From Actinomadura macrotermitis (lineage in GTDB: Bacteria; Actinomycetota; Actinomycetes; Streptosporangiales; Streptosporangiaceae), in assembly GCF_009604375.1 (NCBI RefSeq), contig NZ_WEGH01000002.1, forward strand, positions 364,073 through 396,072: a stretch of DNA of 32,000 nucleotides, read 5' to 3'. The translations under genes were made by a program, and so were the position numbers. The notes below the pieces were generated by a model, which was given only the letters and a program-made list of their open reading frames with translations, was not told where the DNA came from and searched no databases. Shown one piece after another: positions 712 through 22,647 of this stretch. The stretch's first letter is position 1. Each line of letters opens with the position of its first letter.

Positions 712-735
712 CACACGCGTCGCGGCCGGGAAACC

Positions 736-779: not shown

Positions 780-781
780 GA

Positions 782-799: not shown

Positions 800-812
800 G
801 AGGTGCTCCGGT

Positions 813-1988: not shown

Positions 1989-2011
1989 ACCGGAGACCGA
2001 GAGGAACCCGC

Positions 2012-3505: not shown

Positions 3506-3542
3506 CATGGCCGGGCGCCCACCGAACGGGCGCCCGGCCATG
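3506..3542 (+). terminator. GC-rich stem-loop (15-bp perfect arms, 7-nt loop) between the serine hydrolase and tetR genes
   Basis: CATGGCCGGGCGCCC-accgaac-GGGCGCCCGGCCATG. It lies 40 nt after the 3466 stop and 41 nt before GTG 3583. No U-tract follows. Confidence 0.45.
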
Positions 3543-3582
3543 CGCAGGCCGGGCCGAGCCGGGCAAGCGAGGGGAGGCGCGG

Positions 3583-4194: not shown

Positions 4195-5040
4195 TCATAC
4201 CGGCGCGGTGAGCGAACGGGCCAGGGCCCGGGCGAACTCCCGCGGCCGCTCCTGAAAACCCGTGTGACCGCCGGGGAAGCCGACCACGGCGGTGCCGAGC
4301 CGGCCGGCGAGCGCGACCGAGGCCCGATGGGCGAGCTGCCCGCGCGAGGTGCTCCCGCCCGCCACCACGATCCGGGCGGGCGAGTCCCGCAAGGCCGCGA
4401 GGTCGGGCCGGTAGGACGCGACAGGACGCAGCAGGTGCCGGAAGAAGCGGTCGAGAACGGCCCGCGCGTCGGCCGGCGGCGTGAACGCACCGGGATCGGG
4501 TGCCGCCCGGCGGGCCCGCGGCGGCTGCGAGAAGCGCTCGATGCCGGTGACGGCCGCGTACATCTTCAGCGCCGCTTCCCTGCCCTCGTTCTCGTAGGCG
4601 TCGCACACCTCGCCGATCGCCGCGCGCAGCCGTCCGGCATCGGGAAGGAGCTCCGGCAGCGGCGGTTCGTGGGCGACGAAGGTGCGCACCAGGCCGGGAT
4701 ACCGGGCGACCAGGGCGAGCCCGGTGACGGCTCCGCCGCTGTTGCCGAACACATGCGCCGGTCCGGCGCCGAGGGCCGACAGCAGCCGGCGCAGGTCGTC
4801 GGCCAGCACCTCGACCGTGGTCTCCCGCGACGGGTCCTCGACGACGCTGCGGAACGTGCCGCGCGGATCGTAGGTCACGACCGTGAACTCGCGCGCCAGC
4901 AGCGGCGCGATCTGCGCGAAGCCGCCGGTGCCCATGGGCACGCCGTTGAGCACGACCAGCGGGCCGGAGCCGCGGATCTCGTGGTACAGGCGTGCGCCGG
5001 GTACCTCCAGGTGCCGGATCCGCGGGTCGCCGATCGCCAT
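4195..5040 (-). CDS. alpha/beta-fold hydrolase (possible thioesterase/esterase of the carrier-protein operon)
   Basis: Nucleophile elbow G-N-S-G-G (HVFGNSGGAVTG). An N-terminal ...LVVLNGVPMGTGGF... oxyanion region is present. GAGAGGAG RBS lies in the 21-nt gap after the upstream P450 stop. 281 aa. Confidence 0.8.
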   Translation of the reverse strand: MAIGDPRIRHLEVPGARLYHEIRGSGPLVVLNGVPMGTGGFAQIAPLLAREFTVVTYDPRGTFRSVVEDPSRETTVEVLADDLRRLLSALGAGPAHVFGNSGGAVTGLALVARYPGLVRTFVAHEPPLPELLPDAGRLRAAIGEVCDAYENEGREAALKMYAAVTGIERFSQPPRARRAAPDPGAFTPPADARAVLDRFFRHLLRPVASYRPDLAALRDSPARIVVAGGSTSRGQLAHRASVALAGRLGTAVVGFPGGHTGFQERPREFARALARSLTAPV

Positions 5041-5061: not shown

Positions 5062-6267
5062 TCAGGCCCAGCGCACGCGGAGCGGCAGCCGCCTGGCGCC
5101 GCAGATCCCCCGCGCGTCGTGGAACTCGGCTCCCGCTGCCACCGACATCTCGCTCCAGCGGGCGAGCATCTTCGCCACGGCGATCCGGACCTCCAGCCGG
5201 GCGAGCGGCGCCCCCAGGCAGAAGTGGATCCCGTGCCCGAAGCTCTGGTGCGCCATGCGCCCGCGGCGGGGATCGAAGCGGTCCGGATCGGGGAAGCGCC
5301 GCTCGTCCCGGTTGGCCGAGGCCAGCCACGCCAGGACGATCCTGCCCGCCGGCACGACGCGGTCGCCGAACCGGACGTCCGCGGTGGTCCGGCGCATGCT
5401 CGGCGCGAGCGGGGTGCGCAGGCGCAGCACCTCCTCGATCACGCCGGGCAGCCCGGCGGGGTCCGCGCGCAGCGCGGCGGCGTCCTCGGGATGCTCGTCC
5501 AGGGTCTGGACGACGTTGCCCAGCAGCGCCGTGGTCGTGATGTGGCCGGCGAGCAGCAGCAGCCCCACGAACCCGACGATCTCCTCGTCCTCCAGGCGCT
5601 CGCCGTCCACCTCGGCGGCCACGAGCGCGCTGGTCAGATCGTCCTCCGGCCGGGCCCGGCGGCGGCGGATGTGCTCCAGGCAGTAGGCGTTCATCTCGCG
5701 CATGACCACCGCCATGGCCTGCGTGCGCCCGGCGTTCGGGACGAAGCCCGTCTGGCTCTCCGGCGCCACCAGGGAGTCGGCCCACCGCCCGAACGTCGGG
5801 CGGTCCCCGGCCGGAATGCCCAGGAGCTCGGCGATGACGGTCACCGGCAGCGGATACGCCAGGGCCGAGACCAGCTCGATCCGCTCCGCGCCGCCCATCG
5901 CGTCCAGCAGCTCGTCGGTGATGGCGGCGATGCGCGGTTCGAGCCGGGCCACCACGCGCGGGGTGAACGCCTTGCTCACCAGCGTGCGCAGCTTGCGGTG
6001 CTGGGGCGGGTCCTTGCGGAGGACATTGCCCTTGATGAAGCGGTCGACGTCCTCCTGAGCCGGCATGAGCGGGCTGAAGTCGGACGAGAAGGTGCCCGCG
6101 TCGTCCAGCACCCGTTCCACGTCGGCATGGCGGAAGACGTGCCATACCCCCGCCTCGGCGTCATGGCTGACGGGTTCGCTCTCGCGCATCCTCCGGAACC
6201 AGGCGAGCACCGACTCGGCGTCGCCGGCCTGGTCGGCCAGCCCGGTCCCCCGCTCGGCGGTGGTCAT
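5062..6267 (-). CDS. cytochrome P450 (atypical I-helix AGHITT), translationally coupled to the carrier-protein/flavin-reductase gene
   Basis: The ATG at 6267-6265 overlaps the upstream TGA (ATGA). ExxR (EEVLR) and the heme loop FGHGIHFCLGAPLARLE are present; 401 aa. Confidence 0.92.
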   Translation of the reverse strand: MTTAERGTGLADQAGDAESVLAWFRRMRESEPVSHDAEAGVWHVFRHADVERVLDDAGTFSSDFSPLMPAQEDVDRFIKGNVLRKDPPQHRKLRTLVSKAFTPRVVARLEPRIAAITDELLDAMGGAERIELVSALAYPLPVTVIAELLGIPAGDRPTFGRWADSLVAPESQTGFVPNAGRTQAMAVVMREMNAYCLEHIRRRRARPEDDLTSALVAAEVDGERLEDEEIVGFVGLLLLAGHITTTALLGNVVQTLDEHPEDAAALRADPAGLPGVIEEVLRLRTPLAPSMRRTTADVRFGDRVVPAGRIVLAWLASANRDERRFPDPDRFDPRRGRMAHQSFGHGIHFCLGAPLARLEVRIAVAKMLARWSEMSVAAGAEFHDARGICGARRLPLRVRWA

Positions 6268-7043
6268 CGCCCTGTCCCTCCCGCCATCCATGCCGAGAAC
6301 CGGCGCCTGCCGTAGAGCAGCGGTTCCCCCGCCAGGATCTCGGCGCCGACCACCTCGCCGAGCACCACCGCATGGTCGCCGACGTCGAGCATCCCGGCCA
6401 CGGCGCACTCGGCCACGGCGAGGGCGTCGGACTCCAGCCACGGAAGCCCCTCCGCCCCGGTAGGCCGCCAGTCGACGTGGGCGAACCGGTCGGCCACGGG
6501 GGAGGCGAAGATCTCCGCGGCCCGGCGGGCCCCGGCGTTCAGCAGGTTGACCGCGAAGCTCTGCCGCGTCGTGATCGCCTCCAGGGTGGTGCTCCCGGCC
6601 TTCAGGCACACCAGCAGGGTCGGCGGTGAGAGGGTGACGCTGCACAACGAGGAACAGGTGGCCCCCCGCGGCAGCATGTCCGCGCCGATGCTCGTCACGA
6701 CCGCCACGCCGGTCGGGAACGCACTCATCAGCGACCGGTAGGCGTCCAGCCCGACATGGCGGCGCCCGGATCCGGCCGGCCCGGAGGCGGCGGGCGACGC
6801 CGCGATCGCGATGGAGCGCAGCGAACTGTAGGCATCGGGCGGGTCGTCCGGATCCCATGCGGTGTGGAACTCCGCCTCCACCCTGTCGAGCAGGGACACC
6901 AGCGTCAGCGAGTCGACGCCGAGGCTCAGGAGCGTCGCGTCGCCGTCCACCGGCAGGTCGGCGGGATGCTCGTCCCAGACCTCTTTGAGTAACGATCGAA
7001 GGCGGTCGAGGACGTGCTCGAGTTCGGCGCCTTTGGTGCTCAT
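6264..7043 (-). CDS. fusion protein: N-terminal acyl/peptidyl carrier domain + C-terminal HpaC/RebF-like flavin reductase domain
   Basis: Residues 1-85 form a carrier domain with the phosphopantetheine motif LSLGVDSLTLVSLLD (Ser45 codon at 6909-6911). An Ala/Ser/Gly/Pro linker follows. Residues ~100-259 match the flavin-reductase-like domain pattern (YRSLMSAFPTGVAVVTS...SSLCSVTLSPPTLLVCL...FAVNLL...DRF...GDHAVVLGEV). ATG at 7043 follows GGAGGAACC. Confidence 0.85.
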   Translation of the reverse strand: MSTKGAELEHVLDRLRSLLKEVWDEHPADLPVDGDATLLSLGVDSLTLVSLLDRVEAEFHTAWDPDDPPDAYSSLRSIAIAASPAASGPAGSGRRHVGLDAYRSLMSAFPTGVAVVTSIGADMLPRGATCSSLCSVTLSPPTLLVCLKAGSTTLEAITTRQSFAVNLLNAGARRAAEIFASPVADRFAHVDWRPTGAEGLPWLESDALAVAECAVAGMLDVGDHAVVLGEVVGAEILAGEPLLYGRRRFSAWMAGGTGR

Positions 7044-7054: not shown

Positions 7055-8566
7055 TCACGAGCGGGGACCGGCGAGGCCGGCGGCGTGGCAGGCCGCTTCC
7101 GTGCGAAGGTGCCGCCGGGTCACCTTGCCCGCCGGGTTGCGCGGCAGCTCCCGGACGACCTTGAATCCGACCGGGCGCTTGTACAAGGCGAGCCGCTCGC
7201 GGACCAGCCCCTTGAGCGACGCGACGAACTCCGCGGCCTCGCCCGGGGCCTCGCCGGGGGCGACGACATAGGCGAACGGCAGCTCGCCCCATTCGTCGCT
7301 CGGCACGCCGACGACGCACGCGTCCCGCACTCCGGGATGCTCCAGGAGCACGCGCTCGACCTCCGCGGGGAAGATCTTCTGCCCGCCGCGGATGATCACT
7401 TCCTTCACCCGCCCGGCGAGGTGGACGTACCCGTGCTCGTCCACCGTGCCCAGGTCGCCCGTGCGGACCCAGCCGTCGCGCACGGCCTCCTCGGTGGCGG
7501 CGGAATCGTTCCAGTACCCGCGCATCCGGCCCGGCCCGCACACCCACAGCTCGCCGTCGTCGCGGCTCTCCACGACCGTGCCCATGATCGCCCGGCCGAC
7601 CGAGGCGCCCGCGCCCCGGGGGACCGCCGACGTGTAGTCGTGCTCGGACGGGGCGAGGGTCGCCACCGGCCCGCCGCCCTCGGTGATGCCGTACACCTGG
7701 CGGAATCCGCACCCGAGCGTCGCGTGCGCCTCCAGGAGCAGGGGACGCGGCATCGGCGCCGCCGCGTAGACGACCTCCCGGAGGCTCGGCAGGCTCGCGG
7801 ACGAGCGCTTTGCGGCCTGTAGGACGAACCTCAGCATCTCCGGCACCAGGAACAGGTGCGTCGCCTCCGCCCGGCGGATCGTGGCGAGGCAACCGGGCGG
7901 GCTGAACATCCGCATGAGGACGATGGTCGCGCCGGCGGCCATGTAGACGAGCGGCAGCACCATCGCCCCGTGGGACAAGGGGCCGCAGTGCAGGAACACG
8001 GTGTCGCCGCCGGGATCGACGTCGGCCAGGTAGCCCGTCGCCACCGACCGCAGCGACCGGTGGTCGACGCAGACGCCCTTCGGACGGCCCGTCGTCGCCG
8101 AGGTATGCAGGATGAACATCAGCTCGTCGTCGGGGATGTCGAGCGGCGGCGGCCGGTCCCCGCTCGCGACGGCGTCCCGGTACCGGCCGCTCTCGAACGC
8201 GAGCACGGAGCAGCCGGCCGGGCGGGAGAGCCTGCGCAAAAGCTCCTCTTCACCCGCGATCGCCGAGGTCTCGCATCCCGCGACGATCGCCGCCACCTCG
8301 TCCGGGACGGCGCCGTAGTGGACGGGGACCGCGATCGCCCCCACCTTGCCGAGCGCGAAGTAGGTCTCCAGTACCTCAAGGCGGTTGTGCGAGAGGACCG
8401 CGACCCGGTGGCCGCGTCCGACGCCCATCGCGTGGAACGCGGCGGCCAGGCCGTCGGTCCGCCGGTCCAGTTCCGCGTAGGTGACACGCCGGTCCGCGTC
8501 GATGACCGCGACGCGCTCACCGTGGCGCTGCCGGCCTCGCTCCGATAACCGCGCCATCCAGGCCAT
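7055..8566 (-). CDS. AMP-dependent synthetase/ligase (FadD / acyl-CoA synthetase / FAAL type adenylating enzyme)
   Basis: AMP-binding motifs are present: LHTSATTGRPKGV, YGITEGG, WVRTGDLGTVDEHGYVHLAGRVKEVIIRGGQKIFPAEVE and a C-terminal PRNPAGKV. RBS is GAGGAGGGG. 503 aa. The motifs look like acyl-CoA-ligase type rather than an NRPS A-domain. Confidence 0.9.
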   Translation of the reverse strand: MAWMARLSERGRQRHGERVAVIDADRRVTYAELDRRTDGLAAAFHAMGVGRGHRVAVLSHNRLEVLETYFALGKVGAIAVPVHYGAVPDEVAAIVAGCETSAIAGEEELLRRLSRPAGCSVLAFESGRYRDAVASGDRPPPLDIPDDELMFILHTSATTGRPKGVCVDHRSLRSVATGYLADVDPGGDTVFLHCGPLSHGAMVLPLVYMAAGATIVLMRMFSPPGCLATIRRAEATHLFLVPEMLRFVLQAAKRSSASLPSLREVVYAAAPMPRPLLLEAHATLGCGFRQVYGITEGGGPVATLAPSEHDYTSAVPRGAGASVGRAIMGTVVESRDDGELWVCGPGRMRGYWNDSAATEEAVRDGWVRTGDLGTVDEHGYVHLAGRVKEVIIRGGQKIFPAEVERVLLEHPGVRDACVVGVPSDEWGELPFAYVVAPGEAPGEAAEFVASLKGLVRERLALYKRPVGFKVVRELPRNPAGKVTRRHLRTEAACHAAGLAGPRS

Positions 8567-8594
8567 CGTGGTGGTCCCCTCCTCGTGCGGGCCG

Positions 8595-9419
8595 TCAGCC
8601 CGACGCCCGCACCGCGCTCATCGCGATCGTGGTGTAGCGCATGGTGAAGGTGCCGCCCACCGCGTCGATGGCCTCGCCGATGCCCGCCTGCACCTCGTGC
8701 ACCTTGGCCGCCGGGTACTGGCCGTGGTCGCCGTGGGTGGGCAGCTGGTCCACCCACTCGTCGCGGGTGTAGCTCTTCTCCCAGGCGAAGCGCCACTCCT
8801 CCGGTTCGCCGAACGCGCCGGCCTCCCGCATCCCGTCCGCGGCCTTGCCGCACAGCATCACGTAGCCGTCCATGGCCTTCGCCGTCCACTGGCGGGCGAC
8901 GAGCGAGTCGGGCAGCAGCCGCCGGTAGACCTCGCCGAAGGACCGCAGCAGTTCCGGCGGCGGCGTCTCGGCGTTCCAGAACACCGCCAGCCGCCCGCCG
9001 GGCCGCAGCACCTGCGCCGCCTTCGCCGCCCCGGCGGCCGCGTCCAGCCAGTGCCAGCTCTGCCCGGAGACGACCGCGTCGAAAGTGCGGCCGGACGGCT
9101 CCCAGGTCTCGAAGGTCGCCACTTCGGCCGCCAGCCCGCGGCGCCGGGCGAACTCGGCCATCCGCGCGTCGGGCTCGACCCCGAGCACCGTGCAGCCGGC
9201 CGCCTGGAAGAGCCGGCTGGAGATGCCGGTCCCGCAGCCGACGTCGACGACGTCGAGACCGGTCCGGTTCGCGGTGATCCGGTCCACCAGGGCCGCGGGA
9301 TAACTGGGCCGTGTGCGGTCGTAGCGCTCGGGGTCCGACCCGAACGCCTCGGCCACCTGCCGGTGCCGATGGAGTTCCTTCTCGGAGAGGGGGGTGCGGG
9401 CGGAAGGTGTAGTGGGCAT
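8595..9419 (-). CDS. class I SAM-dependent methyltransferase
   Basis: Motif I VVDVGCGTGISSRLF and post-I LGVEPD are present, with a Methyltransf_11-like layout. The start ATG sits exactly 6 nt after a TAAAAT -10 box, so the transcript looks leaderless. 274 aa. Confidence 0.85.
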   Translation of the reverse strand: MPTTPSARTPLSEKELHRHRQVAEAFGSDPERYDRTRPSYPAALVDRITANRTGLDVVDVGCGTGISSRLFQAAGCTVLGVEPDARMAEFARRRGLAAEVATFETWEPSGRTFDAVVSGQSWHWLDAAAGAAKAAQVLRPGGRLAVFWNAETPPPELLRSFGEVYRRLLPDSLVARQWTAKAMDGYVMLCGKAADGMREAGAFGEPEEWRFAWEKSYTRDEWVDQLPTHGDHGQYPAAKVHEVQAGIGEAIDAVGGTFTMRYTTIAMSAVRASG

Positions 9420-9455
9420 GTGCCCATTTTAAGTGGGCACACGCCCACTCGTCAA
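9411..9455 (-). promoter_or_regulatory. near-consensus leaderless promoter with two embedded palindromes
   Basis: The minus strand reads TTGACG-AGTGGGCGTGTGCCCACT-TAAAAT-GGGCAC-ATG. The -35 is at 9450-9455, the 18-nt spacer is a 7-bp-arm palindrome (9432-9449), and the -10 is at 9426-9431. The ATG follows 6 nt later. A second palindrome TGGGCA-nn-TGCCCA (9413-9426) spans the start codon. Confidence 0.6.
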
Positions 9456-10765: not shown

Positions 10766-10774
10766 GGGCGTCTC

Positions 10775-11035: not shown

Positions 11036-11151
11036 CACGGCTCCCCTTTCTTCATGCGATTCCACCAATGAGTCACAGTGCCGGAGGGAGCCGGTCGCAA
11101 TGAACCCCCAATAGTGGGGGCTGCCCAAATTCGAGTTCACGCGCTAGGGGT

Positions 11152-11185
11152 TTTACGCGCACACGGCGGGCCGTACTGTTGGCCG
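11152..11185 (+). promoter_or_regulatory. putative leaderless promoter of kynU (TTTACG-N16-TACTGT-N6-ATG)
   Basis: Hexamers lie at 11152-11157 and 11174-11179. No Shine-Dalgarno sequence precedes ATG 11186. Confidence 0.4.
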
Positions 11186-12436
11186 ATGACCGATCCGTAT
11201 ATGGAAGAAGCCAGGCGATTGGACGCGGCCGATTCTCTTTCGGGTTTCCGGGACAGGTTCGTGATCACCGATCCCGGCATCGCCTATCTGGACGGGAACT
11301 CACTGGGCCGGCTGCCGCGGTCCACCCGCGACCGGCTGCGCGCGCTCGTCGACGAATGGGGCGCGGACCTGATCGACGGCTGGCGGCGGTGGCTGCCGGC
11401 CGGCCGCGAGGCGGGCGACCTCGTCGCACGGATCGTCGGCGCCGAGCCGGGCGAGGTCGTGCTGTCCGACTCGACCGGCGTCAACCTGTACAAGCTGGCC
11501 GTCGCAGCGCTGGACGCCCGGCCGGGACGCGATGTGATCGTCGCCGCCGCCGACGACTTCCCCACCGACCGGTACATCCTGGACGGCATCGCCGCGGCGC
11601 GCGGGCTCAAGGTGCGGTGGCTCGGCTCCGGCCTCGACGACGCCGTGCGACCGGCCGACGTGGAGGCCGCGCTGGACGCCCGGGTCGCGCTGGTGTGCCT
11701 GTCCCACGTGGCGTACCGGTCCGGCGCGGTGGCCGACCTCGCCGGGGTGACGAAAGCGGCGCACCGGCACGGCGCGCTGGTGCTGTGGGACCTGTGCCAC
11801 TCCGCCGGCGCCGTCCAGGTCGGGCTGTCCGCCGCCAACGCGGACCTCGCGGTCGGCTGCACCTACAAGTATCTGAACGGCGGGCCGGGCGCACCCGCCT
11901 TCCTGTACGTGCGGCGGAAGCTCCAGCCCCTGCTGCGGCAGCCGATCTGGGGCTGGTTCGGGCAGACCGACCAGTTCGCCATGGGGCCGGACTACCGGCC
12001 GGTGCCGGCGATCGAACGCTTCCTCGTCGGCACTCCCCCGGTGCTGGCCGGCCATGCGGCGCTGGAAGGGGCGCGCCTGACGGCCGAGGCCGGGATCGAG
12101 GCCATCGCGGCCAAGGCGCGGAGCCTGACCGGGTACGCGCTGCGGCTGGCCGACGCCTGGCTGGCACCGCTCGGGTTCCGGGTCGCCTCGCCTCGCGACG
12201 GGCGGCGGCGCGGCGCCCACCTGACCTTGCACCATCCCTCCGCCTGGCCCGTGTGCCAGGCGGCGAAATCGGCCGGGGTGATCCCGGACTACCGTGCACC
12301 CCAGCGGCTCCGGCTCGGCTTTCCGCCGCTGTACACCCGCCACATCGACGTGCACAGCGGATTGTCGCGGCTGCGCGACGTCGCGGCGACCGGCCGGTAC
12401 AGGGACTTCCCTGACGACCCGAAGGGACTGACATGA
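11186..12436 (+). CDS. kynU: kynureninase (PLP-dependent, aminotransferase class V fold)
   Basis: The N-terminus has FRDRFVI...IYLDGNSLG. The PLP-lysine motif GCTYKYLNGGPGAPAF is the kynureninase signature. 416 aa. There is no RBS, and the ATG lies 6 nt after a TACTGT -10 box. Confidence 0.9.
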   Translation: MTDPYMEEARRLDAADSLSGFRDRFVITDPGIAYLDGNSLGRLPRSTRDRLRALVDEWGADLIDGWRRWLPAGREAGDLVARIVGAEPGEVVLSDSTGVNLYKLAVAALDARPGRDVIVAAADDFPTDRYILDGIAAARGLKVRWLGSGLDDAVRPADVEAALDARVALVCLSHVAYRSGAVADLAGVTKAAHRHGALVLWDLCHSAGAVQVGLSAANADLAVGCTYKYLNGGPGAPAFLYVRRKLQPLLRQPIWGWFGQTDQFAMGPDYRPVPAIERFLVGTPPVLAGHAALEGARLTAEAGIEAIAAKARSLTGYALRLADAWLAPLGFRVASPRDGRRRGAHLTLHHPSAWPVCQAAKSAGVIPDYRAPQRLRLGFPPLYTRHIDVHSGLSRLRDVAATGRYRDFPDDPKGLT

Positions 12437-13245
12437 CGACCACGGGCGACGGCGTCCAGCCGGAGGGCTACCCCGCCCGGCTGGCCCGGCTGACCGACGT
12501 GCCCGACGGCGCGTACCGGACCGTCCGGTACGGACCCGCGCCGGAGCAGTTCGGCGAGTACTGGCCGGGGGGCGACGGGGCGGCCGTGGTCCTGGTCCAC
12601 GGCGGCTACTGGCGCAAGCGCTACCGGCTGGACCTGATGCGCCTGCTCGCCGCCGATCTCAACGCCCGCGGGTTCGCGGTGTGGAACATCGAGTACCGGC
12701 GGATGGACATGGCGGGCGGCGGCTGGCCCGGCACCTTCGACGACGTCTCCGCCGCGCTGGACGCGGTGACCGGCCTCGACGGCGGGGCGGTCGATCCCGC
12801 CCGTGTGGGCCTGGTCGGCCACTCGGCCGGAGGACATCTCGCGCTGTGGGCGGCCCACCGGGCGGCCGGGCCAGGGCGGGTCTCCCCCGCCGCGGTGGTG
12901 TCGCTCGCGGGGGTGTGCGACCTGGTGACGGCCGCGCGGCTGGGGCTGAGCAACGGCGCGGTGGCGGAGCTGCTCGGGGGCGGGCCGGACGACCTGCCGG
13001 AGGTGTACCGGCGAGCCGACCCGATGGCGCTGGTCCCGCTCGGTGTGCCGCAACTGGTGGTGCACGGCACCGCCGACGAGGACGTGCCCATCGAGCTGAG
13101 CCGGCGCTACGCCGAGGCGGCGGGCCGCGAGGCGGTGCTGCTCACCCTGCCGGACGCCGACCATATGGACGTGATCACTCCGGGCACGGCGGCCTGGGCG
13201 CGGATCGCGGAGGAACTGGGCCGGCTCCTGCCGCCCGGCCGGTAA
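12433..13245 (+). CDS. alpha/beta hydrolase, arylformamidase (AFMID/Bna7-type kynurenine formamidase) candidate
   Basis: ATGA overlap with the kynU stop. Motifs present are HGGYW, nucleophile elbow GHSAGGH, and Asp (GTADEDV) and His (DADHMDV) triad positions. 270 aa. Confidence 0.7.
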   Translation: MTTTGDGVQPEGYPARLARLTDVPDGAYRTVRYGPAPEQFGEYWPGGDGAAVVLVHGGYWRKRYRLDLMRLLAADLNARGFAVWNIEYRRMDMAGGGWPGTFDDVSAALDAVTGLDGGAVDPARVGLVGHSAGGHLALWAAHRAAGPGRVSPAAVVSLAGVCDLVTAARLGLSNGAVAELLGGGPDDLPEVYRRADPMALVPLGVPQLVVHGTADEDVPIELSRRYAEAAGREAVLLTLPDADHMDVITPGTAAWARIAEELGRLLPPGR

Positions 13246-13321: not shown

Positions 13322-14920
13322 TCAGCGGCCGTGAATGGCCCGCAGCAGCTCGTAGTTGCTGGGCAGCGTCTCGGCATACTCCCGCTGGCGGCGCTTGACC
13401 TCATCGAACAGCGGTTCCGCCGCGCGCACCGACTCCGGCTTGTAGGCCAGTGCCGGAAGCGGCCGGTCGGGCAGGAATCCCATCCCGGTGAAGATGCAGT
13501 AATAGCTGCCGTTGGTCCAGAAGTTACGGAACTCCGTTTCGAAGTTGCCGTAGTAGTCGCTCTCGCCCGTGATCGGCTGGTTGATCGCGAGCCCGGCCTT
13601 GTACATCGCCATCTTCTCCTGGATGGCGTCGGACAGCTTGAGTTCTTTGTTGGCCTTCCAGAACTCGGTGTCGATGCGCGGCGAGCAGTAGAAGTGGGCC
13701 TGCAGGAAGTCCCGCGTGTCGTCGAACATCACCTGGATCTCGCGGTTGAAGCGGTCCACGAGGGCCGGGTCGAAGTCGCCGTCCGGGATGAGCTTCGCCA
13801 GCCAGTACAGCGCGGCGTAGGTGAAGTAGATGCCGGTGGACTCCAGCGGCTCGACGAAGCACGAGGCGAGTCCGACGCTGACGCAGTTCTTCACCCAGGC
13901 CCGGCGGTTGCGGCCGACGCGGAACCTGACGTGGTTGAACGTCTCCTTCTCAGGGTCCAGGCCCCACATCCGGCTGAACTCCTCGGTCGCCTCGTCCTGG
14001 GAGGCGAACCGGCTGGAGTACACGTAGCCGGTCCCGAACCGGTCCAGCATCGGGATCTTCCAGGTCCAGCCGGACTTCATCGCGATGGACGAGGTGTACG
14101 GCTCGACCCCGAGGCGCTCGTCGTCGTTGGGGATCGCCGTGGCCACCGCGCGGTCGCACAGCAGGTGGTCGCTCATGTCCACGAAGGGCTCGCCCATGGC
14201 CTTGTTGATGAGCAGGCCGCGGAACCCCGAGCAGTCCACGAACAGGTCGCCTTCCAGCACCCTGCCACTGGCGGTGCGCAGGCCGGTGATGTGGCCGCGC
14301 TCGTCCAGCAGCGCCTCCTGCATCGTGTCCTGGACATGCTCGACGCCCTGGCGCCCGGTGGCGAAGCGGCAGAGGAAGTCGGCGACGAGCTGGGCGTCGA
14401 AGTGCCACGCGTACCGGGTGGCACGGCGGCCGTCCAGCCACCGGGGCCCCCGCTTGGCGTCCATCATGGCCGGTTCCGCCATGCAGGCGTAGTCGAAGGG
14501 CTCGTCGGTCTTCCCGGCGTGGTGGCGCTGGAACCAGTAGTGCGACAGCGGGATCTGGTCCTCGTCCGGCAGCAGGCCGAACGGGTGGTGGAACTGGTCG
14601 GGGCGTCCGTCAAGGTCGCGCGGGGTGCTCTGGGACTCACCGGGGCTGCGCCAGTTGATGAACTTGACCGCCAGCTTGAAGGCGGCGTTGCATTCGCGCA
14701 TCCACTCGTCCTCGGGGATGCCGAGGTAGTCGAAGAACGCCCGCTGCAGGTTCGGCACGGTCGCCTCGCCGACGCCGATGCGCGGGATCGAAGGGGCCTC
14801 CAGCACCGTGATGTCCACGGTGCCCTGTAAGGCCTTGCCCAGATAGGACGCGGCCATCCAGCCGGCCGTCCCCCCGCCGAGAATGACGATCTTCTTGATG
14901 CGGTTGCCGAAGGCGTCCAT
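13322..14920 (-). CDS. flavin-dependent tryptophan halogenase, RebH/PrnA-like (Trp 7-halogenase clade)
   Basis: [19 protein letters not shown] (GxGxxG), catalytic Lys context [21 protein letters not shown] (WxWxIP) and [11 protein letters not shown] (catalytic Glu) are present. Near-colinear similarity along the whole length to my recollection of RebH and PrnA. 532 aa. Confidence 0.93.
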
Positions 14921-14978: not shown

Positions 14979-15728
14979 TCACACCCTCGCCCGCAGATCC
15001 CAGAGTTCGGGGTAGAAGCGCTTGGCCGTGGTGGCGTGCAGATAGGCCACCCCGGCGGAACCGCCGGTGCCGCGCCGCCGCCCGATGAGGCGCTCCACCA
15101 TGGGGACGTGCCGGGCCCGCCAGAGCCCGAAGCCCTCGTCGTGCTCGATCATCGCCTCGGCCAGCCGGACCAGCCCGTCGCCGGGCACCTCCGCCCGGTA
15201 CAGCTCCACCAGGTCGGGATCGCCCTGCCGCGTGCGCAGCCGCCGGAACTCGTCCCACAGGGACGGTTCGGCCATCCGGCGCTCCAGCCGGGTCCGCTCG
15301 GGCTCCGACATGCGCGTCGTGGTCAGGTAGTCCGGATCCTTCAGCCCGGACAGGAACTCGATCTCGCGGAACTGGACCGACTGCAGGCCGCTGGAGCCCG
15401 CCAGCGTCCCGCGCAGCGCGGCGAAGCCCCCCGGGCTGATCGTCTCCAGCGTGGCGACCTGCGCGACCAGGATCTCCTCCACCGCGCGGACGCGCCGCAG
15501 GCAGTACACCGCGCGCGGGATGTCGTCGGCCGCCACCGCCGCGACGGCCGCGTCCAGCTCATAAAGGACGATCTTGAATTGCAGCTCGTACACCTGGTGC
15601 ACGGTGAAGAAGAAATGCGCGTCGTGCGCCTCCGCCGACTCCCGCTGCAAGGACAGCAGCGTGTCCAGCCGCAGGAAGTCCCCGTAGCGCGGTTCCCACG
15701 ACGCCGGCTCCGCCGGCGCCCGCGACAT
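14979..15728 (-). CDS. kynA: tryptophan 2,3-dioxygenase (heme-dependent)
   Basis: Distal His region FFTVHQVYELQFK. Proximal His and the GTGGS motif are in WRARHVPMVERLIGRRRGTGGSAGVAYL. The ATG shares 1 nt with the TauD stop (TGATG). 249 aa. Confidence 0.88.
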   Translation of the reverse strand: MSRAPAEPASWEPRYGDFLRLDTLLSLQRESAEAHDAHFFFTVHQVYELQFKIVLYELDAAVAAVAADDIPRAVYCLRRVRAVEEILVAQVATLETISPGGFAALRGTLAGSSGLQSVQFREIEFLSGLKDPDYLTTTRMSEPERTRLERRMAEPSLWDEFRRLRTRQGDPDLVELYRAEVPGDGLVRLAEAMIEHDEGFGLWRARHVPMVERLIGRRRGTGGSAGVAYLHATTAKRFYPELWDLRARV

Positions 15729-16594
15729 CAGTAGGACTCCTTCGCGTTCACGCGGGCCGGCGCGTAACGCTCGCCCGGCCTGGGCCGGAAGTGCTCCCAC
15801 CGGGGCCGGTCGCCGTCGGGGCTGTCGCCGAGGACGACGACGCGCAGTCCCGTCCGGCGCTCGGCGTAGTCGTCGACGGCATAGTGCTGCGTGGCCCTGT
15901 TGTCCCAGATCGCCACGTCGCCGTCCCGCCACCGGTGGCGGCAGGTGAACTCCGGGGACGTGGAGAACTCGCAGAGGAACTGCAGGAGCGCGTCGCTCTC
16001 GTTGCGGCTGAGCTGCGCGATGTGCGAGGTGTGGGCCCGGTTGACGAACAGGGACCGCCGCCCGGTCTCCGGATGCACCCGGACGACGGGGTGCTCCGCC
16101 CTGCTGTCCAGCCCCGGAATGTGGATGGCGTGGATCGCGGTGAGGCCGTCGAGCAGCTCGCGCAGAGGCGCCGACAGGGCCTCGTACGCCAGGTACTGGT
16201 TCGACCACATGGTGTCGCCGCCCGTGCCGGGACTGCGCACGATCTGCAGGATGGAGCCGATGGGCGGGTTCGGCGAGTAGGTCATGTCGGTGTGCCAGAT
16301 CGGGATCTTGCCGTCCTGCTCCGAGTCGATGATCTGAATCTCCGGATGCCCCTCCAGATGCGGCAGGTAGGGGTGGACCTCCAGTTCCCCGAAGCGCCGG
16401 CCGAACGCCACGCGCGACCCGGGCGGCCAGTCGTGCTGGCCCCGGATGAAGATCACCAGGTATCTCAGCAGCAGCCGGCGCAGCTCCGCGAACTCCTCAT
16501 CGGTGATCTCCGCGAGCCGCACGCCGCGGACCTCGGCGCCCAGCGCGCCCGACAGCGGCCGGACATCGAACGCCGTCGTCATTGACTCCGCCAT
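15728..16594 (-). CDS. TauD/TfdA-family Fe(II)/2-oxoglutarate-dependent dioxygenase
   Basis: HxD facial triad in [10 protein letters not shown] and the distal His in [11 protein letters not shown]. The N-terminus [19 protein letters not shown] is typical of the family. An alternative ATG exists at 16582. 288 aa. Confidence 0.88.
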
Positions 16595-16641
16595 CTCTCA
16601 CACTTCCGTTCTCATCGGTCAGCGGTACATCCGGGTCCGGC

Positions 16642-17931
16642 TCACTCCGGCGCGAGCGAGGGCATCGCCCTGCGATCGGGCAGCACGCCCAGCTGGAAGA
16701 GCCTGTCCAGCGGCCCGAGGCGGCGCATGCCGAGGCCCGACATGTTGTAGGTCGTCAGATAGCTGAGCCGCGCGCTCCTGGCCGTGCCGGACAGCAGCCG
16801 CCGGCCCAGCAGCCGGCCGCCGCGCGACGTGGAGGTCATCATGCGCGCGGCGTTGTGGCTCATCGCGTGGACGTCGCCGATCCTGCCCATCCGCTGGTCC
16901 TCGTAGCCGCGCAGCGCCCCGTCCACCGCCGCGCCGTCACCAAAGTCGATGCCGGAGAGCCGGGCGGCGAGCGCGTGCGCGTCGCCGATGGCCGTGTTCA
17001 TCCCCTGGGCGGCCAGGGGATGCACGCTGTGCGCGGCCTCACCGATCAGGGCGATGCCGGGCCGCGCCAGCGACGCGGCCACGTACCGCCAGACCTTCAG
17101 CAGCTGGCGGCGGTCCAGGCCGCCGGGGATCGCGGACGCGAGCGGGCCGAGCGCGGGCACCTGACCGACGAGTTCCGCGGTCCACCGCCGCAGCCGGTCC
17201 GCCCCACCTCCCCTCATCTCGTCCGCCGTCACCTGGACATAGACGCGTGTCGCCCCCTCCGGCAGCGGATAGACCATGACCAGCCCGCGGTCGGTGACAT
17301 AGGCGGACACCTCGCCGGCGACCGGCGGCGGGCACGGCAGCTCGAAGGTCAGGAGCCGGTGACCGTAGGCGACGGGCTCCGCCGCGATCCCCGCCGACCT
17401 GCGCAGCCGCGAGGACATGCCGTCCGCCGCCACGACGAGCCGCGCGCCGATGTCGCGCGTGGCGCCGCCCTCGGTGACCCGCACTCCGGCGACACGGCCG
17501 CCGGGGTCCCTGATGACGTCGTCCACCAGGACACCGCGCCGCCACCGCACCGTCGGGCCCAGCGACTCCCCGAGGCACTCCAGGATCGTCGTGTAGTGGT
17601 GGGACAGCATCCAGGACCGCTCGCCGCCGAGCGCCCCGAAGTCCATGGCCAGCAGTTCGGCGCCGTCCGCCCTCCTGGCGACGAGCCGGTCGATGCGGAC
17701 CGCCCGCCTGGCCTCCAGCGTGCGGAGCACGTCCCACCCCTGCAGGATGTCCAGCGAGCCGGGCTGGAGGACCTCGCCCTTCGCGATCGGGGGCTGCCGG
17801 CGCTTCTTGTCCAGCAGGACCACGTCCAGCCCGAGCCTGCCGAGGGCGTTGGCCGCCGCCAGGCCCGCGACGCCTGATCCGCAGATCACGACGTCGGCGT
17901 CCAGGGGTTGCGGCGCGTATCCCGTTGTCAT
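16642..17931 (-). CDS. FAD-dependent monooxygenase (group A), squalene-epoxidase-like signature; candidate terminal-olefin epoxidase
   Basis: Motifs: GxGxxG (VVICGSGVAGLAAA), AKGEVLQPGS (compare squalene epoxidase GELLQPGG), DG motif AADGMSSRLRR, and GD motif GEAAHSVHPLAAQGMNTAIGDA. ATGA overlap with the cyclase stop. 429 aa. Confidence 0.8.
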   Translation of the reverse strand: MTTGYAPQPLDADVVICGSGVAGLAAANALGRLGLDVVLLDKKRRQPPIAKGEVLQPGSLDILQGWDVLRTLEARRAVRIDRLVARRADGAELLAMDFGALGGERSWMLSHHYTTILECLGESLGPTVRWRRGVLVDDVIRDPGGRVAGVRVTEGGATRDIGARLVVAADGMSSRLRRSAGIAAEPVAYGHRLLTFELPCPPPVAGEVSAYVTDRGLVMVYPLPEGATRVYVQVTADEMRGGGADRLRRWTAELVGQVPALGPLASAIPGGLDRRQLLKVWRYVAASLARPGIALIGEAAHSVHPLAAQGMNTAIGDAHALAARLSGIDFGDGAAVDGALRGYEDQRMGRIGDVHAMSHNAARMMTSTSRGGRLLGRRLLSGTARSARLSYLTTYNMSGLGMRRLGPLDRLFQLGVLPDRRAMPSLAPE

Positions 17932-19655
17932 GACGCCCTCTGTTTCTCGAACGGGCCGTCCGCCGCCGCGGCCCGGTAGCTCCCGAGCGCCTTGAGGGCG
18001 AGCCCGTTGACGATCAGACCGTCCACGTAGTAGGCGAGATCGCGGATGTGCATGCAGACCGGGCTCGCCTTCCACAGGCCGTCGCTCTGCTGGGCGGAGA
18101 CGATCCATCCGGCCGCGCGCCGCAGGCGCGGGTCGTCCGCCGGTACGCCGCAGGCGAGCAGGCCCCGCAGGGCCCACGCGGTCTCCTCCACCGTCCCCGC
18201 CGAGGCGTCGTCGCCGGGCGTGCCGGTCTCACCCGGCCCCCACGACCCGTCCGCGAGCTGGGCGTCCAGCAGGGCCTCGCGGGCGCGCACGGCGACCGGG
18301 TGGCCGGCGAGCCCGGTACGGCCGAAGGCCACGAGCGCCATGGACGTCCCCGGAGTGAGCCCGCGGTACCAGAGGGCCTCATAGGTGCCGTCGGCACGCT
18401 GGTGGGCGAGCAGCCAGTCCAGCGCCTTGCCGATTCCCGGGTCCTGCCGGGAGGCGCCGCCGTCGAGCAGGACTTCGACGGACTGCGCGGTCACGTAGGG
18501 GCACGGGCCGTCGTTCGCGAGCGTGGTGTCGGGCACGAAGGTCCCCCACGAGCCCGTGCGGTCCTGCCGCGACTCCAGCCAGCGCAGCCCGCGCCGCAGG
18601 CTCTCCGCCCCGTCCTCCCCGCCGCCTTCCCGGCCGGCCGCCACGAGGGCGGACAGCACATTGGCGCTGTCGAGGATGTTCGGCCACCCCCGGGGCCCTT
18701 CCCAGCCCCAGCCGCCGGGGGGCGCGTCGAAGATCGCGAACGCCTCGTCCTGCTGGCAGCCGCGCAGCCACCGCCTCGCGCGCGCCAGCCGGGGGTCGGC
18801 GGCGAACCCGGCATCCGCCAGGCCGCGCGCGATGTAGGAACCGCCGATCAGATCGAGTCCCTGCATGATGTGCCAGGAGCCGTCCGCGTGCACGTTCGAC
18901 CGGAGGTAGCCGACGGCCTCGGAGATCAGGGCGTCCGGCGCGCCGGCGCAGCACAGGCCGATGCACACCACCGCGACCAGCCAGTTGTCCCCGCCGTAGC
19001 CGCCGCGATCGTTCTCGCCGCGTTCCACCTCCGCGAGCGCGCGGAGCCCGGCCGATCTGGCCGGCCGGCTCAGCAGGCGCTGGAAGCCCTTCGGCGGGCT
19101 GTGCCGCGCCTGGACGAACGCCATGGCGACGAAAGGCGCCACCCGGAAGGACAGCCGGGCACGCCAGAACCGCCGGGGGAGCATGAGCAGCTCCAGCGGG
19201 ATGCGCCGTGCCCCCCGGATGTCCCCGAGGCCCGCCAGCATGAGGAAGGTCGCGGCCATGTGGGCCATACCGGGATCGGTGAACGCCCGCATCCCACCCT
19301 GCCGGTCCAGCAGGTCCGTCGCGCGCCGCACCGGTTCCCGCGACGCCTGCGGATCCAGCAGGTGCAGGGCCGACGCCGCGACCACGGTCGGCACCGGCTG
19401 CGTGGGGGCTCCGGCGACCCCGCCCCACCCGCCGTCGGCGTTCTGGGCGCCCGCCAGCCACCGGACGCCCCGCTCGACCAGGTCGCGCGAGCGCTCGGGA
19501 TCGGCCAGGTGCAGGGCGACGACCGCGCCGGCCGTGCCCAGTACGGCGGTGGGCCGCCGGTTCGGCCAGGATCCGTCCGGGCGCTGCAGCGCGAACAGGG
19601 CCTCGGCGGCCCGCACGACCGAACCCTCGATCCGACTGTTCATGGTCGCGCACAT
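17928..19655 (-). CDS. squalene-hopene-cyclase-fold (alpha/alpha toroid) class II terpene cyclase-like protein, DxDD motif absent
   Basis: At least 5 QW-type repeats: ALQRPDGSW, WLAGAQNADGGWG, WLESRQDRTGSWG, WLLAHQRADGTY, WIVSAQQSDGLW. The C-terminal half is colinear with SHC. The position aligned to SHC YPDVDDTA reads WPNILDSA. Start 19655 was chosen for GAGGG at -9; the 19760 alternative would overlap ubiA by 70 nt. Confidence 0.8.
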   Translation of the reverse strand: MCATMNSRIEGSVVRAAEALFALQRPDGSWPNRRPTAVLGTAGAVVALHLADPERSRDLVERGVRWLAGAQNADGGWGGVAGAPTQPVPTVVAASALHLLDPQASREPVRRATDLLDRQGGMRAFTDPGMAHMAATFLMLAGLGDIRGARRIPLELLMLPRRFWRARLSFRVAPFVAMAFVQARHSPPKGFQRLLSRPARSAGLRALAEVERGENDRGGYGGDNWLVAVVCIGLCCAGAPDALISEAVGYLRSNVHADGSWHIMQGLDLIGGSYIARGLADAGFAADPRLARARRWLRGCQQDEAFAIFDAPPGGWGWEGPRGWPNILDSANVLSALVAAGREGGGEDGAESLRRGLRWLESRQDRTGSWGTFVPDTTLANDGPCPYVTAQSVEVLLDGGASRQDPGIGKALDWLLAHQRADGTYEALWYRGLTPGTSMALVAFGRTGLAGHPVAVRAREALLDAQLADGSWGPGETGTPGDDASAGTVEETAWALRGLLACGVPADDPRLRRAAGWIVSAQQSDGLWKASPVCMHIRDLAYYVDGLIVNGLALKALGSYRAAAADGPFEKQRAS

Positions 19656-19689
19656 GGGACCACCCTCGTCTTCCCTCGCTTCGTATCGG

Positions 19690-22610: not shown

Positions 22611-22647
22611 GTGTGCTCCTTCCATGCGGACCGGGCAAGAGGCGGTC

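Follow-up and report, generated by a model that had tools for sequence, protein, structure and literature searches.

The carrier-reductase gene and its neighbours

The 32,000-nt stretch of Actinomadura macrotermitis DNA analysed here (the window) carries an ORF in which a carrier protein and a flavin reductase are read as a single polypeptide (Table 1). The ORF comprises 259 unbroken codons plus a stop, is preceded by an AGGAGG Shine-Dalgarno sequence 5' of its ATG at 7043, and ends in a TGA that overlaps the ATG of the downstream P450 gene (ATGA at 6264-6267). In a protein comparison its product was 100% identical to an A. macrotermitis protein. Both halves have the codon-position GC of a coding frame, with a GC3 of 0.87 for the carrier and 0.93 for the reductase, and the sole in-frame start near the junction, the ATG at codon 106, has no Shine-Dalgarno sequence before it. 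Pfam assigned PP-binding to residues 14-79 with 29.5 bits (E 8.8e-7; cut-off 20.8) and Flavin_Reduct to residues 106-252 with 125.6 bits (E 2.4e-36; cut-off 27). Both scores exceed the curated thresholds, and chance matches are therefore excluded. In the AlphaFold2 model (pTM 0.62), two well-folded units are separated by a low-confidence linker. The carrier-reductase ORF is thus confirmed as real, and the initial annotation, which had read a carrier and a full flavin reductase from one ORF with a FadD-type adenylating enzyme upstream and an ATGA-coupled P450 downstream, was correct on all of these points.

Table 1. Features of the window discussed in the text
Feature	Coordinates	Strand	Basis
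CloN7/CouN7-type alpha/beta-fold acyltransferase (predicted)	4195..5040	-	Abhydrolase_1/6 (Pfam)
Cytochrome P450	5062..6267	-	p450 (Pfam); ATG overlaps fusion stop (ATGA)
Fusion ORF, carrier protein + flavin reductase	6264..7043	-	Translation, Shine-Dalgarno, Pfam
ThdF-like NADH:FAD reductase domain, aa 99-259 (predicted)	6267..6749	-	Flavin_Reduct, ThdF/CtcQ homology
Linker, aa 86-98, AASGPAGSGRRHV	6750..6788	-	Low-complexity, predicted disordered
Carrier domain, aa 1-85	6789..7043	-	PP-binding hit, AlphaFold2, stand-alone ACP homologues
FadD/aryl-acid type adenylating ligase	7055..8566	-	AMP-binding + AMP-binding_C (Pfam)
SAM-dependent methyltransferase, head of ligase operon	8595..9419	-	Methyltransf_11/23/25 (Pfam)
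Kynureninase	11078..12436	+	KYNU_C + Aminotran_5 (Pfam)
Putative kynurenine formamidase, alpha/beta-fold	12433..13245	+	BD-FAE/Abhydrolase_3; between kynureninase and halogenase
Thal-like flavin-dependent tryptophan 6-halogenase (predicted)	13322..14920	-	Trp_halogenase, E 2e-165
Tryptophan 2,3-dioxygenase (TDO)	14979..15752	-	Trp_dioxygenase, E 2e-43
Diterpenoid core genes	15728..22625	-	Pfam; colinear with tiancilactone clusters

The carrier domain was modelled with a pLDDT of 87-97 and with helices at residues 3-22, 45-59 and 75-82. Its predicted phosphopantetheine attachment site, Ser45 (codon 6909-6911), lies in the motif LGVDSLT (GVDSL) and is the first residue of the second of these helices, i.e. 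the start of helix II. In an alignment, every orthologue, whether fused or split, has a GxDS-type motif with this serine. Profile score and serine motif together mark the domain as a probable PF00550 carrier. It is 55-77% identical to stand-alone ACPs of 85-97 aa, and a phmmer search with it returned 42 relatives, nearly all of them stand-alone carriers or PKS/NRPS domains. Two orthologues (70-77% identical) bear JGI's automatic name CloN1, and through this naming the domain appears to resemble CloN1-type carriers. One candidate, P0255, in which a carrier reads through into a truncated P450, was a remnant near a contig end and was discarded as evidence. The 13-residue linker has a pLDDT below 70 (below 50 at residues 89-93) and, in an alignment with split orthologues, matches their C-terminal ACP tail plus their N-terminal reductase tail; the linker in A. 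litoris is 20 aa longer.

The Flavin_Reduct match spans positions 1-152 of the 153 in the profile. The closest solved homologues of the reductase domain are ThdF (9fd4, 58% identity) and CtcQ (8ct0, 47%), both encoded, as is the reductase of the window, in clusters with flavin-dependent halogenases, and ThdF was also the top Foldseek match (target-normalised TM-score 0.82). ThdF is an NADH-specific, FAD-reducing homodimer that contacts FAD and NADH through R16, S48, R61 and the backbone of A65 (PMC11795597). In the fusion, R16 and S48 are kept as R103 and S135, R61 is conservatively replaced by K148, and A65 corresponds to T152. Profile, fold and contact residues point to a PF01613 reductase of the HpaC/ThdF type.

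The adjoining ligase, whose best solved homologues are feruloyl-CoA synthetase, FadD13 and MenE, is 63-86% identical to the ligase of every related cassette and is presumed to load (chloro)anthranilate onto the carrier. No cassette protein, the ligase included, reached an equivalog-level assignment or cut-off in NCBIfam. Orthologues of the methyltransferase at the head of the operon adjoin the ligase at three related loci (L001, L002 and L009). The coupled P450 occurs in all related cassettes, the reductase-free one (see below) included, and its best solved homologues are 5vws and EryK. Among its best 60 solved relatives, which include 5vws, EryK, PikC and EryF, the recognised names are those of macrolide, steroid or vitamin-D hydroxylases, and no aminoacyl-PCP hydroxylase was recognised. 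Beyond the P450 the initial annotation had placed an alpha/beta hydrolase. The alpha/beta fold stands; the function is more probably that of a CloN7/CouN7-type acyltransferase than of a thioesterase, as suggested by a GxSxG-type nucleophile motif (GNSGG, read from the translation), by 55% identity over 97% of the length to a Streptomyces rishiriensis protein with the UniRef name clorobiocin biosynthesis protein, and by the many homologues named CloN7/CouN7 by JGI.

Halogenase and diterpenoid genes of the window

The halogenase is 72.5% identical to Thal, conserves K79 and E358, and is Thal-like at four of the five Thal/RebH switch positions. Since Thal is a free-tryptophan enzyme, the halogenase is predicted to be of the free-Trp type. 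It is the sole enzyme of the window that belongs to a family known to require externally supplied FADH2; among the genes scanned, Pfam detected no other two-component flavin monooxygenase, and neither a PltA/SgcC3-type halogenase nor an HpaB-type monooxygenase. The initial annotation had tied the reductase to flavin-dependent halogenases, and this tie is borne out by ThdF, the best solved homologue, which is encoded beside Thal, and by the location of the Thal-like gene 6 kb from the reductase gene. With TDO, the putative formamidase (84% identical to its A. litoris orthologue), kynureninase, ligase, carrier and the CloN7-like acyltransferase, the halogenase makes up a complete set for the supply and attachment of chloroanthranilate.

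The diterpenoid core genes encode a TauD dioxygenase, a PlaT1/TnlT1-like FAD epoxidase, an atypical class II cyclase, a UbiA prenyltransferase, a polyprenyl synthase and an FAA-hydrolase-family protein. They are 60-87% identical to, and colinear with, those of the tiancilactone (tnl) clusters of Streptomyces sp. CB03234 and CB03238. All four PlaT1-T4/TnlT1-T4 homologues are present, at 65-76% identity to Streptomyces tnl-type loci including that of CB03234. By this gene content, the window is a predicted tiancilactone-like (phenalinolactone-family) diterpenoid cluster. It contains four P450 genes, only one of which (5062..6267) has the reductase gene next to it. Neither a ferredoxin nor a ferredoxin reductase was picked up there by Pfam.

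Fused, split and reductase-free relatives

Two assemblies of A. litoris carry the same in-frame fusion (80% identity), as do four contigs that encode a metagenomic protein (66% identity). A sequencing frameshift, which the initial annotation had named as a possible source of the ORF, is therefore excluded. Among relatives in a collection of 5.8 billion proteins, the fusion was found in only three protein clusters, and a search of genome contigs with the whole fusion returned only A. litoris and three distant stand-alone reductases. A literature search found no paper describing a fusion of PP-binding with a flavin reductase. The architecture thus appears uncharacterised, as the initial annotation had supposed, and very rare.

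In Streptomyces, Kitasatospora, Polymorphospora and metagenomic relatives, carrier and reductase are encoded by separate adjacent genes. These overlap by 4 nt at L009 and are separated by 1 nt at L002, by 5 nt at L014 and by about 94-140 nt at L007 and L008. In Streptomyces sp. CB03234 the cassette is colinear and lacks the reductase gene, and a reductase query of the 20-kb locus was also empty; the product of this cluster has been described as a chloroanthranilate-bearing tiancilactone (PMC11069151). In a neighbour-joining analysis of the reductase domain, 74 of 200 bootstrap replicates grouped the three fused proteins as a clade, a result that favours neither one fusion event nor two.

Where a cassette has a reductase gene, it always lies between those of the ACP and the P450, and it is orthologous (67-81% identity) even between cassettes with a non-orthologous halogenase (38%). 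Orthology in spite of unlike halogenases, together with this fixed position, indicates that the reductase travels with the carrier/P450 cassette and not with the halogenase. In Polymorphospora the cassette lies beside an unrelated PKS region. This pattern of inheritance counts against the explanation of the fusion that we favour below.

Proposed roles of the two domains

Which steps do the two domains serve? With a probability of about 0.68, we consider the protein to be the product of two neighbouring genes of a chloroanthranilate branch, translationally coupled and here fused in frame, whose domains would act at opposite ends of the branch and not on a common intermediate. The C-terminal ThdF-like domain would reduce FAD with NADH and release FADH2 into solution, and with this FADH2 the Thal-like halogenase would chlorinate free L-Trp at C6. 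The 6-Cl-Trp would then be converted to 4-chloroanthranilate by TDO, formamidase and kynureninase. The FadD-like ligase would adenylate the acid and load it on the phosphopantetheine arm of carrier Ser45, from which the CloN7/CouN7-like acyltransferase would pass the acyl group to a diterpenoid hydroxyl. Substrate identities, regiochemistry and the direction of acyl transfer in this scheme, as well as the absence of a channelling role, are inferred, whereas domain identities, homologies, gene order and the split or missing genes of relatives were observed. Release of FADH2 into solution is consistent with the conclusion drawn for ThdF that any supply of reduced flavin to Thal is by free diffusion, an FAD-bridged ThdF-Thal complex appearing unlikely (PMC11795597). 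The fusion probably arose by loss of the stop/start boundary between the coupled genes, and its outcome would be 1:1 co-expression, without demonstrated channelling. The evidence hence favours the fallback of the initial annotation, namely that the fusion could simply ensure co-expression; rare as it is, the fusion is probably a chance product of how the genes are arranged and not a novel catalytic device.

An alternative is that the reductase domain supplies electrons to the ATGA-coupled P450, directly or by way of reduced free flavin, and that fusion to the carrier joins the acyl-S-carrier substrate with the reductant. The reductase gene is always directly upstream of that P450 gene and here translationally coupled to it, it is orthologous across cassettes with non-orthologous halogenases, the cassette also occurs beside the unrelated PKS region of Polymorphospora, and the window offers no ferredoxin or ferredoxin reductase that Pfam can detect. 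However, CB03234 retains the P450 in the absence of the reductase gene, the P450 is nearest to 5vws/EryK-type enzymes and not to the known carrier-dependent P450s, and the reductase gene adjoins just one of four P450 genes. In addition, HpaC/ThdF-type reductases are two-electron flavin reducers and are not known to be established P450 partners. Supply of the P450 therefore seems unlikely. It is likewise improbable that the tether is functional in a more general sense, with a dimeric FADH2 generator on the carrier that would provide reduced flavin locally, or a platform for docking, to the P450 or another carrier-visiting enzyme. If this were true, split genes would have given rise, once or possibly twice at the least, to a natural 'carrier protein with built-in reductant'.

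The reductase domain might instead, or in addition, serve the FAD epoxidase of the terpenoid branch, which is squalene-epoxidase-like. Eukaryotic squalene epoxidases require an external reductase, and the epoxidase of the window, in which Pfam detects an SE-family domain, could in principle also require an external electron donor; reductase gene and epoxidase co-occur at L007, L008 and L014. Against this, the functions of PlaT1-T3, of which PlaT1 is the epoxidase homologue, were assigned by heterologous expression in a paper that mentions no flavin reductase (PMC11317874). CB03234 again lacks the reductase gene, and the closest characterised reductases are encoded alongside halogenases. We regard this alternative as decidedly unlikely.

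The initial annotation had proposed that the fusion brings FADH2 to a carrier-tethered substrate for halogenation or oxygenation on the carrier, and a precedent could be seen in SgcC2/SgcC3/SgcC/SgcE6 of C-1027: the reductase domain is ~40% identical to SgcE6, and fused domains often share a pathway. The results speak against it. The sole flavin-dependent halogenase is close to the free-Trp enzyme Thal, its Streptomyces counterpart is SttH-like and likewise of the free-Trp type, and TDO, formamidase and kynureninase must act after chlorination and before loading. Neither a PltA/SgcC3-type halogenase nor an HpaB-type monooxygenase was found among the genes scanned, and, given that orthologues are split or reductase-free, the physical link is hardly obligate. 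On-carrier chemistry is thus very unlikely. Finally, a single indel would suffice to fuse carrier and reductase where the split genes of relatives lie -4 to +5 nt apart, as at several loci, but an artefact of assembly or sequencing, or a non-functional read-through with one inactive domain, is extremely improbable, because the fusion recurs in A. macrotermitis, two A. litoris assemblies and four metagenomic contigs with differing linkers, all in frame, and because coding GC3 is kept along the whole ORF, Ser45 and the ThdF contact residues are conserved, and both domains are confidently folded in the model.

Taken together, the comparative evidence describes a neighbour-gene fusion in a known type of pathway, and the fusion alone is therefore no pointer to new chemistry. 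It does link two pathway steps and confirms that the chloroanthranilate branch includes the reductase. Cassettes in fused, split and reductase-free form make up a natural series that offers a ready test of whether cluster-encoded flavin reductases matter in halogenase pathways.

Comparison with known systems

NovH/NovI cassettes have, like the window, an adenylating enzyme, a carrier, a P450 and an alpha/beta-fold protein in this order, and the initial annotation had drawn an analogy with the A/PCP + P450 + TE systems that beta-hydroxylate tethered amino acids. The analogy is not supported beyond gene order. The ligase is of the FadD/aryl-acid type, matching FadD, feruloyl-CoA and MenE-type ligases rather than an amino-acid A domain; the P450 is nearest to 5vws/EryK, with no recognised aminoacyl-PCP hydroxylase among its best 60 relatives; the supposed hydrolase is predicted to be an acyltransferase of the CloN7/CouN7 type, not a thioesterase; and anthranilate, the likely substrate, has no beta-carbon.

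In C-1027, SgcE6 is an HpaC-family NADH:FAD reductase whose cluster also encodes a carrier protein, and in the SgcC2/SgcC3/SgcC chemistry it serves enzymes with PCP-tethered beta-tyrosine as their substrate. There is no fusion of SgcE6 with its carrier, however, and neither a carrier-dependent halogenase nor an HpaB-type hydroxylase was detected in the window. The carrier-dependent halogenase systems PltA/PltL and SgcC3/SgcC2 differ from the window in the same respect, its only halogenase being Thal-like. The reductase and halogenase of the window are 58% and 72.5% identical to ThdF and Thal of the thienodolin cluster of Streptomyces albogriseolus, and the reductase is also related to CtcQ of the CtcQ/CtcP pair. 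ThdF, like CtcQ, is a stand-alone protein of ~190 aa, whereas the reductase of the window bears an N-terminal carrier domain and is encoded 6 kb from the halogenase gene.

On the way to clorobiocin, a hydroxyl receives its aromatic acyl group through the carrier CloN1 and the acyltransferase CloN7 (PMC11218499). Like the genes of the window, CloN1/CloN7 and CouN1/CouN7 (clorobiocin and coumermycin) combine a small carrier with an alpha/beta-fold acyltransferase, which in those systems esterifies a hydroxyl with the aromatic acid held by the carrier (PMC11218499, PMC8748450). In those systems the acyl group is a pyrrole that is made on a PCP and shuttled across, and the acceptor is noviose; in the window a chloroanthranilate would presumably be loaded directly by the FadD-type ligase and passed to a diterpenoid. 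CloN1-type carriers are also of the stand-alone type, in contrast to the fused carrier described here.

Among the closest known systems are also the tnl clusters of CB03234 and CB03238 (Dong, Rudolf, Deng, Yan and Shen, ChemBioChem 2018, as relayed in PMC10301674 and PMC11069151), the product class of which is a diterpenoid with chloroanthranilate. Colinear genes shared with the window encode the polyprenyl synthase, UbiA prenyltransferase, class II cyclase, SE-like epoxidase, TauD, FAA-hydrolase-family protein, P450, ligase, ACP, second P450, CloN7-like acyltransferase, TDO and Trp halogenase. The ACP and reductase that form one ORF in the window are separate in CB03238, and the reductase is absent in CB03234. 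Halogenase and TDO of the window are non-orthologous to the Streptomyces ones (38% and 31% identity; Thal-like versus SttH-like halogenases). Beyond the tnl clusters, the window has an in-cluster kynureninase and formamidase, a dual methyltransferase, a PapA5-like acyltransferase and deoxysugar genes. Judging by the additional genes for sugar, methyl and acyl tailoring, the product would be an analogue of tiancilactone and not the same compound, and the window thereby flags an Actinomadura tiancilactone-like cluster from which new analogues are possible.

The fusion gene and its operon

The whole window was annotated by frame-plot gene calling and Pfam, and the positions are collected in the table below. 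The fusion protein, in which a carrier domain and a flavin-reductase (FR) domain are joined by a linker, is 100% identical to an A. macrotermitis protein. An AGGAGG Shine-Dalgarno sequence stands ahead of its ATG at 7043, and its stop and the start codon of the following gene share the sequence ATGA. PP-binding scored 29.5 bits at residues 14–79 (cut-off 20.8), and Flavin_Reduct matched over its full length at residues 106–252 with 125.6 bits (cut-off 27). GC3 is 0.87 and 0.93 in the two halves, with codon-position GC of the coding-frame type in both. No in-frame start with a ribosome-binding site was found within the ORF ahead of the reductase part; therefore, the A. macrotermitis reductase can be produced only as a fusion. 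The neighbours named in the initial annotation (FadD-type ligase, P450 and alpha/beta-fold protein) agree with Pfam, and the distances among these genes and the fusion, −4 to +28 nt, indicate one operon with the methyltransferase first. The A. litoris locus, syntenic in other respects, lacks the Na+/H+ exchanger family gene of this operon, which may be an exporter gene or an unrelated insertion.

Positions of features in the window and in related loci
Locus	Feature	Position	Strand	Remark
Window	Fourth P450	within 417–1988	+	adjoins TetR region, as in A. litoris
Window	Beta-lactamase-family gene	about 1982–3466	+	arrangement as in A. litoris
Window	TetR regulator	3532–4182		adjoins fourth P450 and beta-lactamase-family gene
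Window	Alpha/beta-fold protein	4195–5040		neighbour of fusion (Pfam)
Window	P450	5062–6267		start overlaps fusion stop (Pfam)
Window	Fusion ORF	6264–7043	−	259 aa, uninterrupted translation
Window	FadD-type ligase	7055–8566		neighbour of fusion (Pfam)
Window	Methyltransferase	8595–9419		operon head
Window	Na+/H+ exchanger family	9452–10765	−	between DUF6059 ORF and methyltransferase
Window	DUF6059 ORF	10775–11140		
Window	Kynureninase, putative kynurenine formamidase	11078–13245		
Window	Thal-like halogenase	13322–14920		72.5% identity to Thal
Window	Halogenase + TDO	13322–15752		
Window	Extra genes	23884–31998		918-aa double methyltransferase (AprA MT2-like), third P450, PapA5-like acyltransferase, MycE-like O-methyltransferase, dTDP-sugar 3,5-epimerase, GFO/IDH/MocA oxidoreductase
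L001 (A. litoris)	Fused protein P0002	10001–10840		
L012 (CB03234)	ACP–P450 region	10001–10388		112-nt gap only
L012 (CB03234)	Halogenase + TDO	12404–14754		
L014 (CB03238)	ACP–P450 region	7776–8757		stand-alone reductase gene
L014 (CB03238)	Halogenase + TDO	10773–13123		
L013 (metagenomic)	P0255	6001–6711		

A tiancilactone-like cluster

The window holds a meroterpenoid cluster of three gene groups: a terpenoid core (polyprenyl synthase, UbiA prenyltransferase, SHC-like class II cyclase, SE-like FAD epoxidase, TauD dioxygenase and FAA-hydrolase-family protein), a tryptophan-to-anthranilate route (Trp halogenase, TDO, formamidase and kynureninase) and tailoring genes (four P450s, methyltransferases, a PapA5-like acyltransferase and deoxysugar genes). 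Among the closest stand-alone reductase homologues is P0008 of Streptomyces sp. CB03238 (74% identical), and among the stand-alone carriers whose source is named the closest belongs to Streptomyces sp. CB03234. [quoted passage not shown] Both loci share the gene order of the window. Their ligase/carrier/P450/alpha-beta-fold cassette and terpenoid genes are 60–87% identical to those of the window, which by this colinearity and identity is a tiancilactone-like cluster. Six kinds of Actinomadura genes (extra genes in the table) are not in the fetched Streptomyces tiancilactone loci, which suggests a glycosylated or further acylated analogue. Kynureninase and the putative formamidase are encoded in both Actinomadura clusters; in the loci of Streptomyces and Kitasatospora neither turned up at a distance of up to 10 kb from the cassette.

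The carrier domain has a GVDS(45)L motif, and its homologues are stand-alone proteins of 85–97 aa, two of which JGI calls CloN1. The alpha/beta-fold protein of the window shares 55% identity with a protein of Streptomyces rishiriensis that has the UniRef name clorobiocin biosynthesis protein, and dozens of homologues of the window protein bear the name CloN7/CouN7. The clorobiocin and coumermycin pathways use CloN1/CouN1 as carrier and CloN7/CouN7 as the acyltransferase that moves an aromatic acyl group to a sugar hydroxyl (PMC11218499, PMC8748450). By this homology, the supposed hydrolase is best read as an acyltransferase, which would move chloroanthranilate from the carrier to the diterpenoid.

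The reductase domain and the halogenase

ThdF (9fd4) is the best solved homologue of the FR domain (58% identity across 154 aligned residues), and CtcQ (8ct0) is the second. The ThdF gene lies in the thienodolin cluster beside that of the tryptophan 6-halogenase Thal, while CtcQ is the reductase for the chlortetracycline halogenase CtcP. Of the contact residues of ThdF, R16 and S48 have identical counterparts in the fusion (R103 and S135), and K148 is a conservative replacement for R61. The window halogenase keeps the catalytic K79 and E358 of Thal and is Thal-like at four of the five positions reported to form the Thal/RebH regioselectivity switch (Moritzer et al. 2019); in Thal the numbering of these positions coincides without offset with V, V, S, G, S, in support of the five-residue list. 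From the identity to Thal and these catalytic and switch residues, we infer that the enzyme would chlorinate free tryptophan at C6, hence giving 4-chloroanthranilate. The initial annotation had drawn a comparison with RebF/PrnF-type reductases, which feed flavin halogenases, and the ThdF/CtcQ homology together with the Thal-like halogenase supports such a role. ThdF is an NADH-dependent, intertwined homodimer that reduces FAD; an FAD-bridged ThdF–Thal complex was judged unlikely, and any supply of Thal by ThdF would be by free diffusion (PMC11795597).

The halogenase and TDO are non-orthologous across lineages. The Actinomadura halogenase is Thal-like and that of Streptomyces SttH-like, with 38% identity between them; between the TDOs identity is 31%. 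The cassette and terpenoid genes around them are 60–87% identical. Judged by these genes, the same pathway has recruited two distinct Trp halogenase lineages.

The most informative comparison is with the CB03234 cluster, whose product is described in PMC11069151 as a tiancilactone with chloroanthranilate, and which carries a colinear cassette of ligase, ACP, P450, acyltransferase, TDO and halogenase. No reductase gene lies between its ACP and P450, and the FR query matched nothing in the 20 kb retrieved. This indicates that the reductase is dispensable for the carrier, the P450 and, apparently, chlorination, as expected of a freely diffusing FADH2 supplier that housekeeping reductases can replace.

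Split and fused relatives

Carrier and reductase are separate in Polymorphospora (1-nt gap), in the metagenomic contig L009 (4-nt overlap), in CB03238 (5-nt gap), and in Kitasatospora and Streptomyces sp. NPDC051776 (gaps of about 94–140 nt). The fusion is colinear in alignment with ACP plus reductase, its linker matching the tail of the ACP followed by the N-terminal tail of the reductase. Only three protein clusters with the fusion were found, those of A. macrotermitis, A. litoris (80% identity) and a single metagenomic protein (66% identity). With the carrier domain as query, phmmer was run exhaustively over 1.84 billion representative proteins and gave 42 relatives, and no further carrier–reductase fusion was found among those inspected. 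The three fusions formed one clade in 74 of 200 bootstraps, compatible with either one or two origins. Their linkers vary in length and sequence, that of A. litoris being 20 residues longer with a Pro/Ala-rich repeat (AAPPAAPPAMPPTMPPTGPP), and the linker is apparently evolving freely. AlphaFold2 predicted two confident domains and a low-confidence linker (pLDDT <50 at residues 89–93; pTM 0.62); no solved structure spanning both domains was found.

P0255 reads in one frame from the C-terminal remnant of a ligase through the carrier into the cassette P450, of which it has the first ~98 residues. The ORF stops 80 nt short of a contig end, neither an intact ligase nor a full P450 was found in the 6.8-kb stretch fetched, and P0255 appears to be a copy that has decayed or been rearranged. 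The cassette of Polymorphospora sp. NPDC051019 (methyltransferase, ligase, ACP, reductase, P450, acyltransferase, TetR) stands at the contig start, adjoining a type I PKS region that includes SRPBCC cyclases; if no terpenoid and halogenase genes lie upstream, this cassette would serve a different scaffold.

Discussion

The observed domain identities, homologies and comparative gene states, taken with the substrates, regiochemistry and lack of channelling that we infer, allow a branch pathway to be proposed. The FR domain would reduce FAD with NADH and release FADH2, with which the Thal-like halogenase would form 6-Cl-Trp; TDO, formamidase and kynureninase would convert this to 4-chloroanthranilate, the ligase would attach the acid to the Ser45-phosphopantetheine of the carrier domain, and the CloN7-like acyltransferase would esterify the diterpenoid. 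Thus, one domain of the fusion would serve the first step of this branch and the other its last. The coupled P450 may oxidise the diterpenoid or have the acid on the carrier as its substrate. We regard the proposed pathway as probable, and with it the reading of the fusion as a Rosetta-stone-type trace of common pathway membership, left by a lost stop/start junction between coupled genes.

It is unlikely that the reductase domain is the reductant source for the coupled P450: its gene is always directly upstream of this P450 and is orthologous across cassettes with non-orthologous halogenases, but CB03234 keeps the P450 without it. A tether that is itself functional, for example as a local reductant or docking platform for the P450, also seems improbable, and service to the SE-like epoxidase is rather doubtful. 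On-carrier halogenation or hydroxylation, the original proposal, has a precedent in SgcE6/SgcC2/SgcC3 of C-1027, SgcE6 being about 40% identical to the FR domain; however, no carrier-dependent halogenase or HpaB-type oxygenase was found in the window, and Trp-degrading enzymes must intervene between chlorination and loading, which makes this reading very improbable. An artefact or dead domain is scarcely credible given the independent occurrences and conserved motifs.

The suggested analogy to the NovH/NovI beta-hydroxylation cassette is not supported, for the ligase is of the FadD/aryl-acid type, the nearest solved relatives of the P450 are 5vws, EryK and PikC, the alpha/beta-fold protein reads as an acyltransferase, and anthranilate, the likely substrate, has no beta-carbon. 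The carrier–reductase architecture appears uncharacterised and rare, and the fusion is a variant within a known cluster type, probably without mechanistic consequence.
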